Positions 17,313 through 62,563 of a stretch of 64,000 nt of DNA are shown piece after piece; position 1 is the first letter of the stretch; each line of letters starts with the position of its first letter. Location of the stretch: assembly GCA_023205875.1 (NCBI GenBank), contig CP060759.1, positions 372,001 to 436,000 on the forward strand, given 5' to 3'. The DNA comes from Chloropicon primus (taxonomy: Eukaryota). A program made the translations under genes and the position numbers. Under the pieces are notes generated by a model, which saw nothing but the letters and a program-made list of their open reading frames with translations, did no database searches and was not told where the DNA came from.

Positions 17313-17803
17313 TTATCTCGGTTGCTGCTGCTGCATTCCACCAAGCATCTACAAGAAAAAGAGAAAAGGGGTGCTGTGAGTAAGAGAAGACAAACCGTCG
17401 CCGCGAGGAATCGATTCGATGGGGTGCTGTGCTTACCTGCCCGACAATGCCCGTAACCTGCCAGTACTTTGCTGCGCACCTGTCGACGCAGCTGTTCTCT
17501 CCCACGTTAAGATCTCCCTCCTTGTATCTGGTGTCCATGCACTTTGCGAAGCACGAAGCCGTCATACTACGTCCAAGCGTTTGCGTTGCAGCGAGTTCAA
17601 AGGAGCAAGAACAAAAGGAGAAGCGCGCCGCGTCAGCGCCTGCCGTTCGGGGCTCGGGAACAAGACGCCTACCGCAGAGGCTGCCAGGGAGGAGGCCAAA
17701 GAGGGACTTACGCATTGTAGAGATCGACGCGATACTCCATCTCGAGCTGGGCCATATCGAAGGCCTTCGCCTTCTCGGCGGGAGACATGTTGGGGTTGCT
17801 CAT
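17313..17803 (-). CDS. TIM10: Mitochondrial small Tim chaperone Tim10 (exons 17803-17712, 17566-17437, 17348-17313)
   Basis: EMEYRVDLYNAMTASCFAKCMDTRYKEGDLNVGENSCVDRCAAKYWQVTGIVGQML with twin CX3C motif. Confidence 0.92.
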
Positions 17804-17949: not shown

Positions 17950-20280
17950 GGCCAACCCAACCAATGAGGGAGGAGGTGATCGCTTGACGACGCAGAAATG
18001 ATTGCAGTTTCAGTTTCAGTTACAACTTCAGTGTAGCGAATGACTCGTAAATCCGCGAGCTCTTACAGGAATCAGATATTCCTCGCAGTGAAGAGAGCTT
18101 TGCGCAAAGAAACTTGGATTAATACTGCGACCAAACAGTCTTGACGCCGGTGCGAGCAGAGATGAAAACCTACCGTAAGAGCTTGAGACGAACATCGCAA
18201 TCTCATAAGTGCCCCGTAAAGAGCACGAGGAAAGATATTTCCAAACGCCCAATCCCATCGTGCGTCCGTTTCAAAACAACACGTGATGTTTCTTTGGATG
18301 GATATCCCTCACCTTACTCAAGGGGCGAGTACTCAGGTCAGCCTTGCAAAGCAATCGATTGCAGGCGATCGATTGCAGGCGCCTTCTTCAGAAACGAGTT
18401 TAGGTTTTAGGAAGGGAGAGAGATGAAGCGGATAAAACAAGCAAGTCATGCTTGCAATACAATGGGATAGGGAAAAATGACTGCTCTCCCCAAAACAATT
18501 TATCAATATTCCACGTTCCATTCTTTCGCGATTACAGTCACTAGAAGCTTTCTGCCAGGCCTCCCTTAAAAATGATACTTTATTATGCTGTACCATCGCT
18601 AATAAGTACTTTAGCATTTTTCTTGAATCAACTTTAAAAAAGCAGCGCGTAATTTCTCAAGTGTTTTGTCTTGCTTTATGTATACAAGTAGTGATGTACG
18701 TTTAAAAGGGGCGTGTATTGGTAAGCTGCTTGTTTTGAAAAAGACATAAAATATGAATTGCCCACAACCATAATGTTTTCTTTTAACAGAGCTCTCATAA
18801 ATATATCAATCATTTTCGTGATGTTGCCCACTCAACTGCAGAAAGATTGCCTGATCTCATGTCTTATTGAGTTTGCCAACACGTATTTACATGGTTCTCT
18901 TCTGATGCTATCGATCAATCAAACATGTTTGAATTGTGAAAACATATTCCAAGTCGATAATTTCTCTGTCAAGCTATCTTGATCATTTTGGTTTACGCCA
19001 TCAAAGTCATTAAAGCGACAAACATATTTTGCAAACTGACAAGGTATACTATTCCTCTCCAATATGTTTACGTGAAGAAGAATATATGATGTGTGTTATC
19101 ATGTTCATCCCATGACCAGATAAAAGCCTTCCTTAAAGTTATATATATATATTTATTTATGATGTTTTTTTTCCTTTCAGTGGTCAGTTTAATACTTCAT
19201 TATGAGCAGGTGATTGCTTCTCAAACCGTTTTAGCTCTTTCGGATTCAAAAAAATCCAGAACCTGAAAGTAATGCCCGCTTCAATTGATTGTTGAGCCGA
19301 TCAAAATCACTAACAATTGTCGCTATCAATATATCACCGTTTATTGTGATTTAGGCACGAAAACATCGATATGTTACAAACCACTACAAAACATTCTTTA
19401 TATTTTGCACTTGAAACTAATATATATAACAGCACAACCATTCGATGTTAATATCATTCAGAAATAAATATAATTCCAAAACCAGATGGATTATGGGATA
19501 TTATAGGCGTGCTTCCACACCATGTCCCTGGTTTGGGGACTGTGCTTAACACGCGTTTAATGTAGACCATAAGTAACCCAAATAACTTAATTTTCAGTTA
19601 CTTTGTACGGAATGTCAATAAAATGGAAGCTCTTTTGCTACTTCTGTTTCAAGATTATTCCGGTTCTTTGTGGGGAGAGCGAATGTCCCTTGTGCTACGA
19701 TATATCGCATTGCCGTGACCTGTTGCGTCACAAGAAGTACTTTTGCTTACCATTTTAGCCTCTCTGCATCACAACTAGCTATCAGGAACTGAAATCAATC
19801 GTAATACCCATACATATTTGCTGTGCAATTTTCTCCTTTCCCCATTTGCTTTCTCGCCATTTCCCTTTCACGTAAGACTTTCTCTGCTCTGTGAGGGTGC
19901 GGGCACCCTTGGAATGAAAAACAGTTTAATGGAAAGTTAGCAAAGAGCTAGGGAACGAAGGGTGAGTTAGCGCACTTTGTGCATAGGGGAATATGAATAC
20001 GAATCAAGTAATATTTTCTAGGGAAAGTTTCTCTGTGGCTTACGGACTTTATCGTCTCGTCTCGGGTATAAAGATACCCCCACTGGTCCCTTTTCCCACT
20101 GCTACAATGTCTCAGTCTCAGTCTTTCTGCTCCTCCAGACAATGATAGGTTGGGTTGTTCAAATCAAACACGCTCCTTAAGAGTCCTAGGTTGGCCCCAG
20201 TCCTGGAGCTCGAACTTCGCGAGGTTGACCGAGCTGCATCTCCAAGAAGCTGCAACAAATTTTGATAAAGTTACAAATTA
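17950..20280. other. AT-rich island with no recognisable long ORF
   Basis: Visibly much lower GC than flanks (e.g. atatatatatatttatttat at ~19141); only short ORFs in the six-frame track. Confidence 0.8.
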
Positions 20281-30749: not shown

Positions 30750-31172
30750 GTCCTATGTTACAATATATTACTATCTATCAGAACCGTTGCGCCCGGGGTG
30801 CGACTTGGGTGGGCAAGGGAACCTCTACCCCTGCGTCGCCCAACGTCAACCTTTGCCCCCCCCCCGTCTCACACCTCCCAGGCCGCTGTGAGACCGCTGA
30901 GAGACTCTGTTGTCTGTGTGCGTGTGCGTGTGCGTGTGATAAAGGCAGACAAAAGCGATGGCATTGCATCCCTCCCTTCCTCTTCCTCTCGGCATCCAGC
31001 GGTGCGATCTGTTGTTATGGTGTTCAGACATCAGATCAAAAACAGCACACAGAAAAGTCACGAAAGGACGGTAGGGAATTCACAGTCAATACTGGAAGCA
31101 CAAAGGCAAGTTCTCCTTTCCACTGAAAGAGAGAAACACGGAGAGAAACACGAGGCGACCGGCCACTACTTA

Positions 31173-31326
31173 CCTGTTAGTTTTCTGCAAAGGTCGTTTC
31201 ACCGAGTTTGTAAGTTTCTCGGCAGGGTAATTCAGCCCTACCACGACCATTCCACCGTACATGAACGAATACTTCCGCCCACGCACGGCAGCCCGTACTA
31301 ACAAACGTATGTGCAACCCTGAGGAG
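31173..31326 (-). ncRNA. Candidate Fanzor omegaRNA scaffold
   Basis: Minus-strand 15-18 bp hairpin with many G-U pairs, a three-way junction, and a closing stem TGTTAGT/ACTAACA immediately after the nuclease stop. Confidence 0.7.
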
Positions 31327-33491
31327 TTACACACTTTTTGGTTGACGCAAGTGCTTCAGGAGGACGTTGCGTGCCCCGTTCACATCCCGACCGCACTTGA
31401 AGCCACACTTCTGGCACTTGTACACCTCTGCTCCACCCAGGTTCTTCTTGATGTGTCCGCACCTGCCACAGGTCTTGGAGGTGTACTCCTCCGTCACGAT
31501 CGCCAGCTCACTGCCGTGCAAGAGCACCTTGGAAGCCAAGAACGTTCTGAACGCATAGTGCCTCAACGTCAAGAGCGTGCGAGCCGTCTTCTTCCTGATC
31601 ACTCGGCGTCTCCCGTTGTTGTTCTTCTTCACCATGTCTTGGGACTTGAACTCCGGGAGGAGGATTGTGTCGAACCTCCTGCATAGATCGTTGGCTACCT
31701 TTTTGTGAAGCTCGTTCGTCAGACCTCGAAGTTTCTCCATGCAGGCGTATTGCTGTCTCTTCAAGTCGCGGCGGTCGAGGTAAGGGAGCTTCACCTTTGG
31801 GTCTTTGCGCTCGGAAATGATCTCATCAATCCTCCAGCAGAGGTTGAACAGCCTCGCGAAGCCTCGCTCGCCCGTGGCATACTCCCCGACGCCTTCTTGC
31901 GGCGAGTACGACGTCTGAAAGGTCCTGACTCCCGGATCCAGGGCGACAACCTTCCGCTTGTTCTCAGGCTTCAGGGGTGGCAGGCGATCCCATGGCGTCG
32001 CGATGGGAATGTATGTGGAACTGCCCAAGGCGATTTCTTGTGATCTTCACGGCACCCTCGATCTTGCCCCCGGGGATCTCCTCCGTCAAGTACAGGGGCC
32101 CGCCGGCCATCTTCTCCTTGAACACCTCCAGCTTGGTCCACTTGCGTCGTTTCTTGTGCTTGTTGTCATCCTTGTGTCTCGTTCTCGGTCTTTCGATCGT
32201 CTCCACGTTCTTTAACTCTCTTGCATCAATTTCAATAGTCCAAGAACTCGGTTGCTGACGTTGACGATACTTGAGAACGAAGCGGTGCCCCTTCTTCTCG
32301 CCGCGCTCCTTCATCGCTTCCTGCTTCGCGGTGTTCGAATCCCATGCCTTGATGAGACTTCGCACGGCAGCTTGTCTGATGGCACAGGGGGTTTCCTTCA
32401 GCCAAGGATGCTTCTGATTTACAAAGGCCCCGCTAACGTAGTCCCGGTCCTTGGCCACTTCGGCGCGAAATCGTCTGCCTCCAATTTGGCTCTCGAGTCT
32501 CTTCTCTCTGGCCGCGAAAAGCTCTGCCTCCTGTTTTGTCCATGGCCGTGGAGAGCATTGGATTTCTTTCAGCTCTTTCTCCAGCCCCTCAAAGACCTCA
32601 GGGCGTCGCGGTTTGGCCGTCACAAATCTGTCCAGCAGGACGGTCCAAACCAGCGGAAAACCCTCCTTCTTGACCGCCTCCAAACACTTGTTGTATGTGA
32701 AACGCGCAGCTCCCATCCAGTTGCAAAGGCATTGCGCCTGCTCAGGGTTCAAGCGCATCCTCACCTTCCTCGTCCGTATCACCGTTCGCTCCGACAATAG
32801 CTTGGAGGTCTTCAGTTTCTGCTCCCTCTTCCTTTTGGCGGGCGACTGCAATGTCTCGACGGATACCACAGAATCTTCTGGAAGGTTCAAGCACGACCTC
32901 CATCCCGTCTTCGGACACTTTACCTCTACAAGTTCTCTCTTGATCGATGAGAACCAGGTCTTCTTCACGCTGTCGTCCGCCAAGCCACCCGGCTGCTTCC
33001 CTGCTTTCTTCCCCCTCTTGTTCTTCTTCTTCTTACCCTTCTTCTTGTTCTTCTTCTTACCCTTCTTGCGAGGCTTCTTGCGAGGCTTGCCTGACGAGCT
33101 CGAACTCTCACCCGCAGAGGCGTCCGCCTCCGGCCGCTTCCCCTTCCGCTTCCCCCCGCTTCTTGCGAGGCGTGCTCGAACCCTCCTCGAAAGCAGAGGC
33201 GGGGTCGTCCAGCGGCTTCCCTTCCGCTTCCCCCCGCTTCTTGCGAGGCGTGCTCGAACCCTCACCCGCAGAGGCGGGGTCGTCCGCGGGAGGAAGCAGA
33301 CACAACGCGTAGAGCAACTGCAAGCCCTGATTCCAGAACGGAAGTAACGGCCGCTCCGTCGTCGGAGACTCCTGCCCCGACTTCGAAGCGCCCTGAGCAT
33401 GACTCTCGCCAGAGTGCGACCTCCTTGTGGAACTCGTCGAGCCACTCCCCTGCTTCTCCTTTTTCTTACGGCGCTTCCCTGATCGCGCCAT
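31327..33491 (-). pseudogene. Fanzor2/TnpB-family RNA-guided endonuclease, ~720 aa when two frameshifts (~33140, ~32014) are corrected
   Basis: PFWN...WFS N-terminal motifs; RTRKVRMRLNPEQ...WMGAARFTYN; RuvC-I ALDPGVRTF; ILLPEF; EEYTSKTCGRCG...CQKC; RuvC-III RDVNGARN. Confidence 0.9.
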
Positions 33492-33741
33492 GACTGTTAG
33501 CTGCTACTGCAAGGGTTTCACTCGCTGCCCTCCTCGTAACTCCTCGTAACTATAGATTTGCCTTGTCCAGCAAGTGAGAACACGAAAAAAACGCTTTGTG
33601 GGTTGTCCTTTGGGTGTGACCAAACTGGTATACACTGGAATCCCACCAACAGGGGAAAACCTCCAACATCTGTCCCAGACCGAGGGAGTGGAGACGGAAA
33701 CGGGGCAGGGGAGTCCAGCGCGTTACGATCGAGCGAGCGCC

Positions 33742-36700
33742 ATGGCGGACACTGCGACGATGGAGCAGTTCAAGGAGGGGAGCCTCGTGTGGGTGAAGGC
33801 CACGACAGTGCCCGGGTCCTCGCCCGAGACCTTGCCGTGGCTCAAGGCTCGCGTCGCGTCTTCCGCGCGCAACTCCTCGCCCAACGAAGAGGGGAGGGTG
33901 GAGGTGGAGGTGTGCGAACACTCTGACCTCGCGGATATCTTCGCCTTCGAGCCGGGTTCGTTCCCTTCGCAAGGGACGCGAGCGGAGGTCGACGCCGCTT
34001 CTCTCAGGGCGCGGACGGAAGGGGACAGCATGGTGGAGGACCTCGTGAACAGTGATATCCTGCACGAGGCGTCCGTGCTGAAAACGCTTGGACTGCGGTA
34101 CATGTGCGACGACATTTACACGTACACGGGGTCGATACTCATAGCGGTGAATCCGTTCAAACCTCTGAAGTCTCTTTACGGGCCGAGCATGATGAAGCGG
34201 TACTACAACACCTTCTTGGGAGAGTCGAGCCCCCACGTGTACGCCATCGCAGAGCAGGCGTACAAGTCCATGCTCATCGACGGTGGGTCCCAGTCCATCC
34301 TGATATCGGGGGAGTCAGGAGCCGGGAAGACGGAGACGGCAAAGCTCGTGATGCAGTACCTCGCGATGAGGCACACGCAAGAGTCCCCGGGGAGGAGGGA
34401 GGCGGAGGCGAGCGAAGCGGGCGCTCCCCCGGTGCAGTACAAGGACGAGCAAGGCCAGAGTGTCTCGCCCTTCACTGCAGGGCTGATGAGGAAGAGGAGG
34501 AACAGCAATCCCGTGGAGCAGCAAGTTCTGCAGTCGAACCCGCTCCTGGAGGCCTTTGGCAACGCGAAGACGGTGAGAAACAACAACTCGTCGCGGTTTG
34601 GAAAGTACGTGGATCTCAAGTTCAACAAGAGGGGGCAGATCCAGACGGCCCACATCCAGACCTACCTGCTCGAGAGAACCCGCGTGGTCCAGGTGTCTAC
34701 ACAGGAGCGCAGCTACCACATTTTCTACCAGCTCTGCAAGGGTGCGTCAGAAGAGCAGAGGGAGATTCTGCACTTGAAAGCCTGCTCTGCATCTGATTTC
34801 TATTACCTTTCCTGCAGTGAAGTTCTCGACATCGAGGGCATGGACGATGCAGAGGACTTTCGTGTGACGCAGAAGGCCATGTCGATCGTGGGCATTTCCG
34901 AAGAGGAGCAGCTCGACGCCATGAAGGTTTTATCGGCCGTCCTCCACATCGGCAACATCAAGTTCTCCGATGCTTTGGAGTCGGACAGCGCTGTCATGGA
35001 TGGCTCGATCGTGAAGGATGAGTGCGAAAGGCATCTCAAGGCAGCTGCGAGCCTGCTGGGCGTGCCCAGCGATGATCTTGAGCAGGCCCTCACAACGAGA
35101 ACGATTGTGGCCCCGGACAGCACTTACAGGAAGGGCTTGTCCCCAATGGATTCGGCCAAGGCCAGGGACACCTTGTCGAAGACCCTGTACGACAAGCTTT
35201 TCAACTGGGTTGTTGAAGCTGTCAATAAGAACATGGATTCCAATGAAGGGGAAACATTGTCCATTGGTATTCTTGACATTTATGGCTTCGAGCACTTCAA
35301 GAAGAATGACTTTGAGCAGCTGTGCATCAACCTCGCCAACGAATACCTGCAGCAACACTTCAATTACCAAGTGCTGAGTTACGAGCAGGAGGAATACACG
35401 AAGGAGGGGATCGATTGGACGTTCATTGATTTCAAGGACAACCAGGATGTTCTTGACATGATAGTGGGCACGGGGGGCAAGAAGAAGCTGAGCGCAATCA
35501 TGCCTATTTTAGATGAATGTTGCCGGCTGCCGCGGACAACTGCAGCAGATTTCTGCCATTCGCTGAAGGACAAGCTTGGGGAGAACAAATCATTGGTGTT
35601 TCACAAGAAGTGGCCCCACTGCTTTGAGGTTAGGCACTACGCGGGGGAAGTGCTTTATGAGACGACCCAGATGATCGAGAAGAACAAGGATTACATCATT
35701 TTTGAGCACAACGCTCTGGCAAAATCGAGCGAATCCAGTTTCTTCCAAGCGTTATTTCTCGCGGGACTGGAGTCACAAGAATCGAAGAACAAGACGTTCA
35801 TTCTGAGGACGGTGTCGTCGATTTTTTCAAAGCAGCTGAAGTGCCTCATGGATGACCTTTGCAAAACAAACCCGCACTACATACGATGCATAAAACCAAA
35901 CTACAGCTGCCTGCGCGGTACGTTTGTGGCAGGCTATGTCCACGAGCAGCTGGCGTACGGAGGGGTGATGGAGGCAGTTAGGATCTCGAGGAGTGGCTTC
36001 CCCTCAAGAAAGGTCTTTGTGGATTTTGTCTACCGATACGAAATTCTCTTGGATGCGAAGGCAAGAGAAAGGTGTGAGGACGCGGATGAAAAACATGTTA
36101 CGGAGCTCATACTGCGCACGCTGAACCTGGAGAACAGGTGGCAGGTCGGGAAAACAAAGGTATTCCTCAAAGAGGGCGTCGTTCCCATGCTGGAAAACAA
36201 GAGGAACGCAGTCCTTTATGATGCGGTTGTGTGCATCCAATCTACATTTAGGACCTACCTTGCTCAGAAGGAGGCGAAGGAGAGGAAGGAAGCCATCGTG
36301 AGGATCCAAAGCTGCTGGAGGAGAGAAATGGCGAAAAGAAGATTTGAATCCGTGAGGATCGATAGAGCAGCGACTTTGCTCCAGTCCTGGGCACGGATGC
36401 TTCCTCTGCGGCAAGCATTTATTGCACACAGGAGGAACCAAAAGGCGATCGTGATCCAATCCTTTGTGAGAAGCTACTTCGCGAGGCAGCGGAGCGAAGC
36501 CGCAAAACTCGTCCTGATCAGACAGAAGAGGAAAGCGGCCGCTGTAACGATTCAGAGCTTCTGGAGACAGCTCGAGGCAAAGAAGACGTTTGCAAGGATT
36601 AAAGCAGAAGCGGAGTATCTCCAGAACATGGAGACGGAGAACGAACGCCTCCAAGAGCGAGTCAGGGAGCTCGAAGCCTACAAGGCCTACAAAGAGGAAG

Positions 36701-62279: not shown

Positions 62280-62563
62280 AGGCAACGAGCCACCGCCTTG
62301 TGATTGGAGCGAGTACACTTGTAAAGCAGCAGCTTTGGGAGGTCACCTTGATGTTCTGAAGTGGGCTCGAAGCCCGGATCCGCCTTGCCCTTGGAACGAG
62401 GAGACTTGTGAATGGGCAGCTCAATATTGGTCACCTTGATGTTCTCAAGTGGCTTCCAAGCCAGGACCCGCCTTGCCCTTGGAACCGAAACAGTTGCATA
62501 AGAGAGGCGAATTCCTTTCACCACCCACACGTCATCGATTGGATGGTCAAGGCTAATTCTTAA
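62280..62563 (+). pseudogene. Ankyrin-like repeat fragment with a frameshift
   Basis: PPCDWSEYTCKAAALGGHLDVLKWARSPDPPCPWNEETCEWAAQY, +1 shift at ~62428, then GHLDVLKWLPSQDPPCPWNRNSC...HVIDWM*. Confidence 0.75.

Follow-up and report, generated by a model that had tools for sequence, protein, structure and literature searches.

A Fanzor2* element of Chloropicon primus whose guide RNA may be assembled by splicing

Introduction

The protein family treated here is already in print. In the annotation published by Lemieux et al. (2019; PMC6731263) it appears as 'putative IS605 transposase' with 25 annotated members, and the text of Yoon et al. (2023; PMC10711439) presents it as a non-IS607 'Fanzor2*' of Chloropicon primus; their curated Table S3 contains UPR03652.1 (P0003 below), which is 97% identical to the protein discussed here. 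As Yoon et al. describe this very family, both the protein and the element were already known. According to their text, these elements are non-autonomous, have degenerate inverted ends and a variable 5-nt duplication, and no partner transposase was found; our copy is similar in all these respects. In IS607 elements, as described in the same text, a fixed dinucleotide closes the scaffold of the guide RNA (omegaRNA) and the guide comes next (PMC10711439).

A Fanzor captured by a transposon has to cope with the new sequence that the transposon's ends impose; how can its guide stay programmable? In the published view, the ends and the duplication were absorbed into the scaffold. The C. primus family points to a second one: the new end is spliced out.

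The window, i.e., the whole stretch of DNA analysed, comprises 64,000 nt of C. primus (GenBank assembly GCA_023205875.1, contig CP060759.1, positions 372,001 to 436,000 of the forward strand); all positions below are those of the window. It was compared with contigs of public sequencing runs. X1 is a DNA run; X4, X5 and X6 (studies P2, P3 and P4, respectively) are RNA by guess.

The Protein and Its Frame Breaks

The initial annotation had joined three overlapping minus-strand reading frames into one Fanzor protein. Stop-to-stop, these frames cover 33108-33503, 31964-33496 and 31327-32046, and they indeed make up a single protein: the intact homolog P0002 (723 aa, from a cluster of 46) tiles the window in three frames by tblastn. 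Its residues 1-113 match 33491-33156 (88%); this part (33156..33491) is a basic, low-complexity N-terminus with repeats of ~76-78 nt and the PFWN segment. Residues 114-496 match 33157-32009 (97%) and comprise a Lys-rich tract, the WFS segment, HTH_OrfB_IS605 and REC/WED (32009..33157). Residues 496-723 match 32013-31330 (98%), and the corresponding feature (31327..32013, including the stop) encodes the RuvC-I D (DPG), a Pro at the canonical Glu position, the alternative Glu, a C4 zinc ribbon and the RuvC-III D. The catalytic residues are located at 31938-31936 (D of ALDPG), 31491-31489 (E of TEEYTSKTC) and 31386-31384 (D of RDVNGARN). The CxxC...CxxC ribbon, ILLPEF, PFWN, WFS and RTRKVRMRLNPEQ are also present, and the motifs first named (DPG, EEYTSKTC, ribbon, RDVNGARN, ILLPEF, PFWN and WFS) all sit where they had been placed.

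As a rule, Fanzors have Pro or Gly where the canonical Glu would be. The E of TEEYTSKTC aligns with the E of NEYLTTKTC in ApmFz2, and the P at the canonical place aligns with a G of ApmFz2; replacement of the canonical RuvC-II Glu by one just before the zinc finger, as initially proposed, is thus seen in the alignment. In the family alignment, the DPG motif and the first E of TEEYTSKTC are invariant, and 21 of the 23 family proteins examined have all three catalytic motifs intact, the other two being fragments. Two Pfam models exceed their cut-offs, PF07282 on the C-terminal piece (67.5 bits, cut-off 26.3) and PF12323 on the middle piece (32.7 bits, cut-off 21). The NCBIfam model guided_TnpB hits the C-terminal piece with an E of 7.8e-21; its score of 74.8 is below the cut-off of 100, which is one for whole proteins. 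A search among longer proteins yielded 496 matches from 1,488 candidates, of which the top four were each a 'putative IS605 transposase [Chloropicon primus]' (97-99%). P0001 has a similar N-terminus but differs in many residues, and was treated as another copy.

The closest PDB sequence is ApmFz2, 9B0L (phmmer, 3.5e-19). The same entry is the best Foldseek match of an AlphaFold2 model of the homolog P0003 (pLDDT 81.8), with an E of 1.7e-12 and a TM of 0.58; SpuFz1 reached 2.6e-4. In sequence and, as judged from the P0003 model, in fold, the protein is closer to IS607 TnpB/Fanzor2 than to Fanzor1. The original call, a Fanzor2 of IS607 lineage, is therefore upheld by DPG, by the shifted Glu and by the best PDB match in sequence and fold. 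Among the viral contigs searched, P0003 had no relative. RNA-guided, TAM-dependent DNA cleavage is the predicted function of the family.

The window copy itself carries two 2-nt losses relative to the family. One, after 33151, affects a homopolymer run (33151..33156) that is 2 nt shorter than in most copies; the other, after 32012 (32011..32013), parts REC/WED from RuvC. At the first break, the 2 extra nt are found in X1 (7643 of 9381 depth), X5 and X6, while the X4 contig skips this repeat unit. At the second they are found at full depth in the contigs of all 4 public runs. The losses may be real decay or errors of assembly. Even where the flank is single-copy, X1 and the window disagree in 2 of 533 letters, and rare variants are lost from contigs; the myosin next door has an open frame of 1,590 codons, but polishing is harder in repeats. 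As assembled, the window copy has no single open frame joining REC/WED to RuvC, nor does its RuvC frame contain a Met before DPG; with two frame breaks, it makes, as assembled, no nuclease. Programmed frameshifting was rejected, since family members have an open frame and the breaks are either private to this copy or vary; introns were rejected as the source of the breaks, since the homolog can be tiled gap-free. Taken by itself, the protein is an ordinary one, from a family already described and in a broken copy.

The Transposon and Its Insertion Site

The whole non-autonomous element extends over 2,656 bp on the minus strand (31013..33668) and reads TGTTGG...CCATAACA, as delimited by the filled and empty alleles and by depth. 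Of its termini, only TGTT/AACA are inverted. It is flanked by the target-site duplication ACAGA, the left copy at 33669..33673 and the right one at 31008..31012 (both minus strand), of which the empty allele contains a single copy. This allele is represented by one X1 contig that joins 30989 to 33668 at a depth of 59.5, the flank having about 130-158. Between about 31010 and 33670 the X1 depth climbs from about 130 to several thousand. In the run contigs, other copies depart at 33668 and 31013, which disposes of duplications of 4 or 6 nt. The variant table of Lemieux et al. lists three heterozygous insertions of 2,664-2,707 bp that begin with these ends, and the flank of one resembles the window site (PMC6731263). 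The locus is, then, a TG...CA element that makes a 5-bp duplication, is multicopy and is polymorphic for presence or absence.

Its neighbours are a myosin gene, divergently oriented, and a coiled-coil ORF in convergent orientation; the genes around it (myosin, PRP38, UBE2O, ATAD3 and others) are eukaryotic, and the adjoining myosin clusters with C. primus myosin, as befits the algal chromosome that had been presumed. The initial annotation had further seen a eukaryotic OMEGA system embedded among housekeeping genes. The eukaryotic neighbours are real, but the system is not resident: a multicopy, presence/absence-polymorphic transposon has landed between host genes. A domesticated host gene is discarded on the grounds that an empty allele exists. 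Elsewhere in the window, about 2 kb (18000-20200) has a GC content of 37-41% against about 57% and no ORF of at least 200 aa; it is a candidate for a short regional centromere or another non-coding island.

A target duplication, degenerate inverted ends and a Fanzor2 as the sole gene make the element a Fanzor2*. It is not an IS607 element: of TnpA there is only a broken ghost frame, and comparison with the empty allele reveals a 5-bp duplication. No integrase was found among the 25 long window ORFs scanned. The ends TGTTGG...TAACA together with a 5-bp duplication recall those used by integrases of LTR or Ginger type, and the Fanzor may be sitting inside a solo LTR. At least one row of the published annotation table reads hypothetical 'integrase' (PMC6731263). 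The right-end DNA pattern had 0 matches in metagenome contigs.

The bases beside the ends in the various copies are AGGAT, TGGAT, CGGAT, AGGAG, xGGTG, ACCTC and ACAGA. Five of these seven have GG at positions 2-3, a hint that some targets are preferred even though the duplication is termed 'variable'. Loose ends in X4 and X5, at window 32893 and 31287, hint at a second subfamily or an internally deleted derivative, with the ancestral CTAACGG retained immediately ahead of GTAAGT.

Descent from IS607

A TnpA-like match was obtained in 72 of 95 related loci. In L001, L002, L004 and L005 an IS607 TnpA frame (NF033518; L004 and L005 above the cut-off, L001 and L002 below it) overlaps the N-terminal part of the Fanzor. 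This overprinting of the Fanzor2 N-terminal extension, in another frame, is found at L001:1303-1632, L002:501-920, L004:1-450 and L005:217-870, and the PFWN and WFS segments fall within this overlap. In the window, tblastn detects a ghost of the ancestral TnpA at 32787..32999 (minus strand), in another frame that overlaps the N-terminal region of the Fanzor. It matches the TnpA frame of L002 with an E of 1.5e-7 and 37.5% over 72 aa, for which shared DNA ancestry alone would suffice; the ghost frame alone has no family match. In a quick tree of 53 RuvC rows, none of them from Fanzor1, the window nests among the TnpA-bearing loci with moderate support (82-92).

In all likelihood the element descends from an IS607 element with overlapping TnpA and Fanzor2 frames and subsequently lost TnpA. 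New ends were, with similar likelihood, gained outside the old right end, which reads CTAAC-GG in two relatives and CTAAC-AG here.

Where the Scaffold Ends

Folding, a motif and covariation in relatives define a predicted omegaRNA scaffold at 31174..31330 (minus strand), ending CUAAC-AG. Downstream of the ORF it is predicted to form a hairpin at the stop codon, an 18-bp stem, further hairpins and a terminal, pseudoknot-type long-range helix of UGUUAG (31303-31298) with CUAACA (31180-31175), which is part of the MFE fold. The 150 nt after the stop have a z of -4.47, with 0 of 200 shuffles being as stable; the last 150 nt of the element (z +0.39) have no excess structure. The helix partners are 127 nt apart, which matches the terminal pseudoknot U-130/A-3 given for ISXfa1 in the text of PMC10711439.

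The five core pairs of this helix are kept, with compensatory changes, in the window and in four of the five relatives examined (L001, L002, L004 and L005), the helices of L004 and L005 having been picked by eye, the pairs counted by script, and the ends of the relatives being presumed ones. L003, a close relative, has no such helix motif. The dinucleotide following the helix is AG in the window and GG, GG, CG and CG in the four relatives. The upstream motif of the helix, GTTTGTTRGTAC, occurs in 2 of the 95 loci, namely the two closest, and an automated scan for helices of the AACGG/AACAG type returned, among the matches listed, L001, L002 and three unconvincing loci.

Since helix and dinucleotide lie at 31174, and since the dinucleotide closes the scaffold in IS607, the scaffold is predicted to end at 31174, 161 nt inside the element. 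The novelty is this internal position: the scaffold would end at a splice donor, not at the end of the element. An RNA copied from the downstream DNA without splicing would, in consequence, carry the wrong guide, and guide RNAs that are read from genomic right ends can, more generally, be wrong in eukaryotes.

A Probable Intron at the Right End

The remaining 161 nt (31013..31173, minus strand) behave as a spliceosomal intron with an acceptor borrowed from the flank, as judged from the sequence, from contig breaks and from loose ends in X4-X6. An AG/GTAAGT donor is placed exactly at the 3' end of the scaffold (31174/31173), and the two strands of the window together contain the 8-mer AGGTAAGT only 3 times. 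Pyrimidines make up 61% of the tail, which has a branch-like CTGAT at 31034, 22 nt from its end. Its last 79 nt are free of AG, which is modestly unusual (776 of 20,000 shuffles had as long a stretch). The first AG beyond the element, 31010-31009, lies inside the right ACAGA and is the predicted 3' splice site of the window copy.

Contigs of X4, X5 and X6 start at 31174 or 31173, and foreign continuations at the donor were seen twice in X5 and once in X6. The X6 continuation is identical to what comes after the unspliced end of the element in X4, except that it lacks the AG at flank +1/+2. This matched pair, a single locus seen in two different runs, is a GT-AG junction with its acceptor outside the element. 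A spliced junction into the flank of the window locus itself was not among the junctions listed from the run contigs, the use of its acceptor being deduced from the other copy. Tail-internal AGs were discarded as acceptors, as no such joint is among the joints listed. Depth, although contig depth is a rough measure, drops from scaffold to tail from 1,888 to 105 in X5, from 282 to 34 in X4 and from 28 to 0 in X6. In the DNA run X1 it is similar on both sides of the donor; none of the X1 pieces listed bridges the donor by 31 nt on each side. The only run registered as RNA, X15, contributed 0 records. The donor is also kept in the CTAACGG/GTAAGT variant seen in loose ends of the runs and in two copies of the published table (PMC6731263). 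Very probably the tail is spliced out as a GT-AG intron.

Donors of the same type, GTAAG/GTAAGT, are present in the apparent introns of a small host gene at 17330-17790 (minus strand). P0004, P0135 and P0146 are annotated as fusions of Fanzor with host sequence via predicted splicing, and 62329-62560 of the window resembles the host C-terminal piece that is fused to Fanzor in gene model P0004.

A Spliced Guide RNA?

As the donor sits at the predicted scaffold end and, in the matched pair, everything from there through an AG of the flank is missing, splicing likely joins the scaffold to a flank-derived guide. That an intact Fanzor2 uses this joined flank as its guide and cuts the matching site appears to us an evenly balanced proposition. 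The most far-reaching version, to which we assign a probability of slightly less than one half, is a eukaryotic OMEGA guide assembled by the spliceosome, with the old IS607 right end as 5' splice site and with one AG in two roles, acceptor and TAM.

The sequence of events might have been as follows. After capture, the new transposase end would have become an intron with an acceptor borrowed at each insertion site, and each copy would splice its scaffold onto its own flank. According to the contigs, most transcripts lose the tail from the donor on and continue in non-element sequence. The spliced RNA would retain the terminal helix, and the guide would begin with the first base after the acceptor AG. 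As this AG would always stand before the target, NAG is the predicted TAM; a specific scaffold (31330-31174) is predicted along with it. Empty alleles would be cut and then repaired from the filled homolog, whereby the element would be retained or spread. The window copy would supply RNA only, and the protein would come from intact copies. Parts of this scheme have precedents in the texts of the pertinent papers: Fanzor2 TAMs have 3 nt (PMC11832414), that of MmeFz2 is TAG and thus a precedent for NAG, Fanzor2s cut at 9-19 nt (both PMC10432273), and with bacterial TnpB the empty allele is cut and the filled homolog copied (PMC10690162).

Some observations speak against the use of such a guide. 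The right flank of the filled allele also holds AG plus target, and a 3-nt TAM may not tell the filled from the empty allele. In two flanks one has to go 14-25 nt from the element to reach the first AG, past the duplication and into sequence that does not differ between the two alleles. Also, the duplications lean to NGG rather than to AG (5 of 7). On the other hand, the filled flank of the window and the empty allele in X1 differ by indels (30990-31000), the first of them 11 nt past the AG predicted as acceptor. This is within the cutting range of Fanzor2s, but being one low-complexity locus it is a lead only. Two insertion calls in the published table carry, towards the right end, about 25 additional letters of flank (PMC6731263). 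Such indels and extra letters are possible scars of cutting and repair.

The best competitor, although rather unlikely, accepts the splicing and assigns it to the formation of mRNA 3' ends or to host tolerance, with a downstream exon and a poly(A) site being borrowed; a minor unspliced RNA reaching the end of the element would be the guide RNA and would include the inverted end and the duplication. In that case splicing and the making of guides would be rivals, as they are in IStrons. Unspliced contigs of element end plus flank are indeed present in X4 and X5, the end AUAACA can pair over 5 bp with UGUUA, and a guide starting at the element end would distinguish filled from empty alleles naturally. 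Moreover, TIR and TSD form part of the Fanzor2* scaffold according to the text of Yoon et al. (PMC10711439). However, the covarying helix, the A-rich linker and the 2-nt ending are found at 31180-31174, not at 31013, and the tail lacks excess structure and has, in X4 and X5, a depth lower by a factor of roughly 8 to 18.

Still less likely, a guide is no longer needed: a transposase would act in trans, nuclease and scaffold would have been carried along in a recent burst, and the donor would be incidental. The copies are 97-99% identical, hence their intact motifs may only reflect youth, and the window copy is broken. Also, of the coding differences listed, scored base by base, only 10 of 28 are synonymous, a count that does not clearly point to purifying selection. 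An incidental donor is, however, hard to reconcile with its position exactly at the scaffold end, with its conservation in the CTAACGG/GTAAGT variant and the two published copies, and with a tail that is intron-like over its length.

Improbable is, finally, that the junctions are not splicing at all but truncated or rearranged DNA copies or chimeric contigs from runs that are not truly RNA: the run types are guessed and DNA-level derivatives do exist (loose ends 32893, 31016 and 31316), yet in three studies the position of the breaks is that of a perfect GT donor, GT-AG holds for the matched pair, 0 of the 6 X1 loose ends listed lie at 31172-31174, and most of the single-copy flank outside the element is uncovered in X4 and X6, as expected of RNA.

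Comparison with Known Systems

Assembly of the guide by splicing, which we prefer, has to be seen against the related systems. ApmFz2 (PDB 9B0L) shares DPG, the shifted Glu and the fold. ISXfa1 TnpB and the metagenomic relatives L001, L002, L004 and L005 share the long-range terminal helix followed by a fixed dinucleotide. The overlapping TnpA frame is common to the IS607 relatives, the window having retained only its ghost. Unlike the Fanzor2s encoded by IS607, the window element lacks TnpA and has 161 nt of tail between scaffold end and flank; also, IS607 recombines at GG without a scar, whereas the window element duplicates its target. Introner-type transposons likewise borrow a splice site from the target site; they splice out whole, however, and carry no nuclease or guide. 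The mollusc Fanzor2* (MmeFz2) is another case of a Fanzor2 captured by a duplicating DNA transposon, and its TAM, TAG, ends in AG as well; its capture was independent, with a TTAN duplication, and no spliced tail is described in the available part of the source.

The published Fanzor2* of C. primus differs from the window copy in that the latter is frameshifted twice. An internal scaffold end with a spliced tail is absent from the main text of Yoon et al., figures aside ('splic' 0 and 'intron' 0 occurrences; PMC10711439). Our search of mostly open-access literature turned up neither a Fanzor guide made by splicing nor any mention of this intron; Figs 4A/S3 of Yoon et al. may show an RNA model.

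The most instructive parallel is that of the IStrons, which combine a group I intron with IS605 or IS607 and TnpB. There, too, splicing and guide RNA share the right end, as stated in the text of PMC10690162; the self-splicing intron, however, excises the whole element and severs the scaffold from the guide. In the present element Rfam found no group I ribozyme, its one match on 30900-33800 being a chance one (E 0.76), and an intron of spliceosomal type removes the end only and would join the scaffold to the guide. If this is true, we are looking at the reverse of the IStrons: there splicing destroys the guide, here it would make it.
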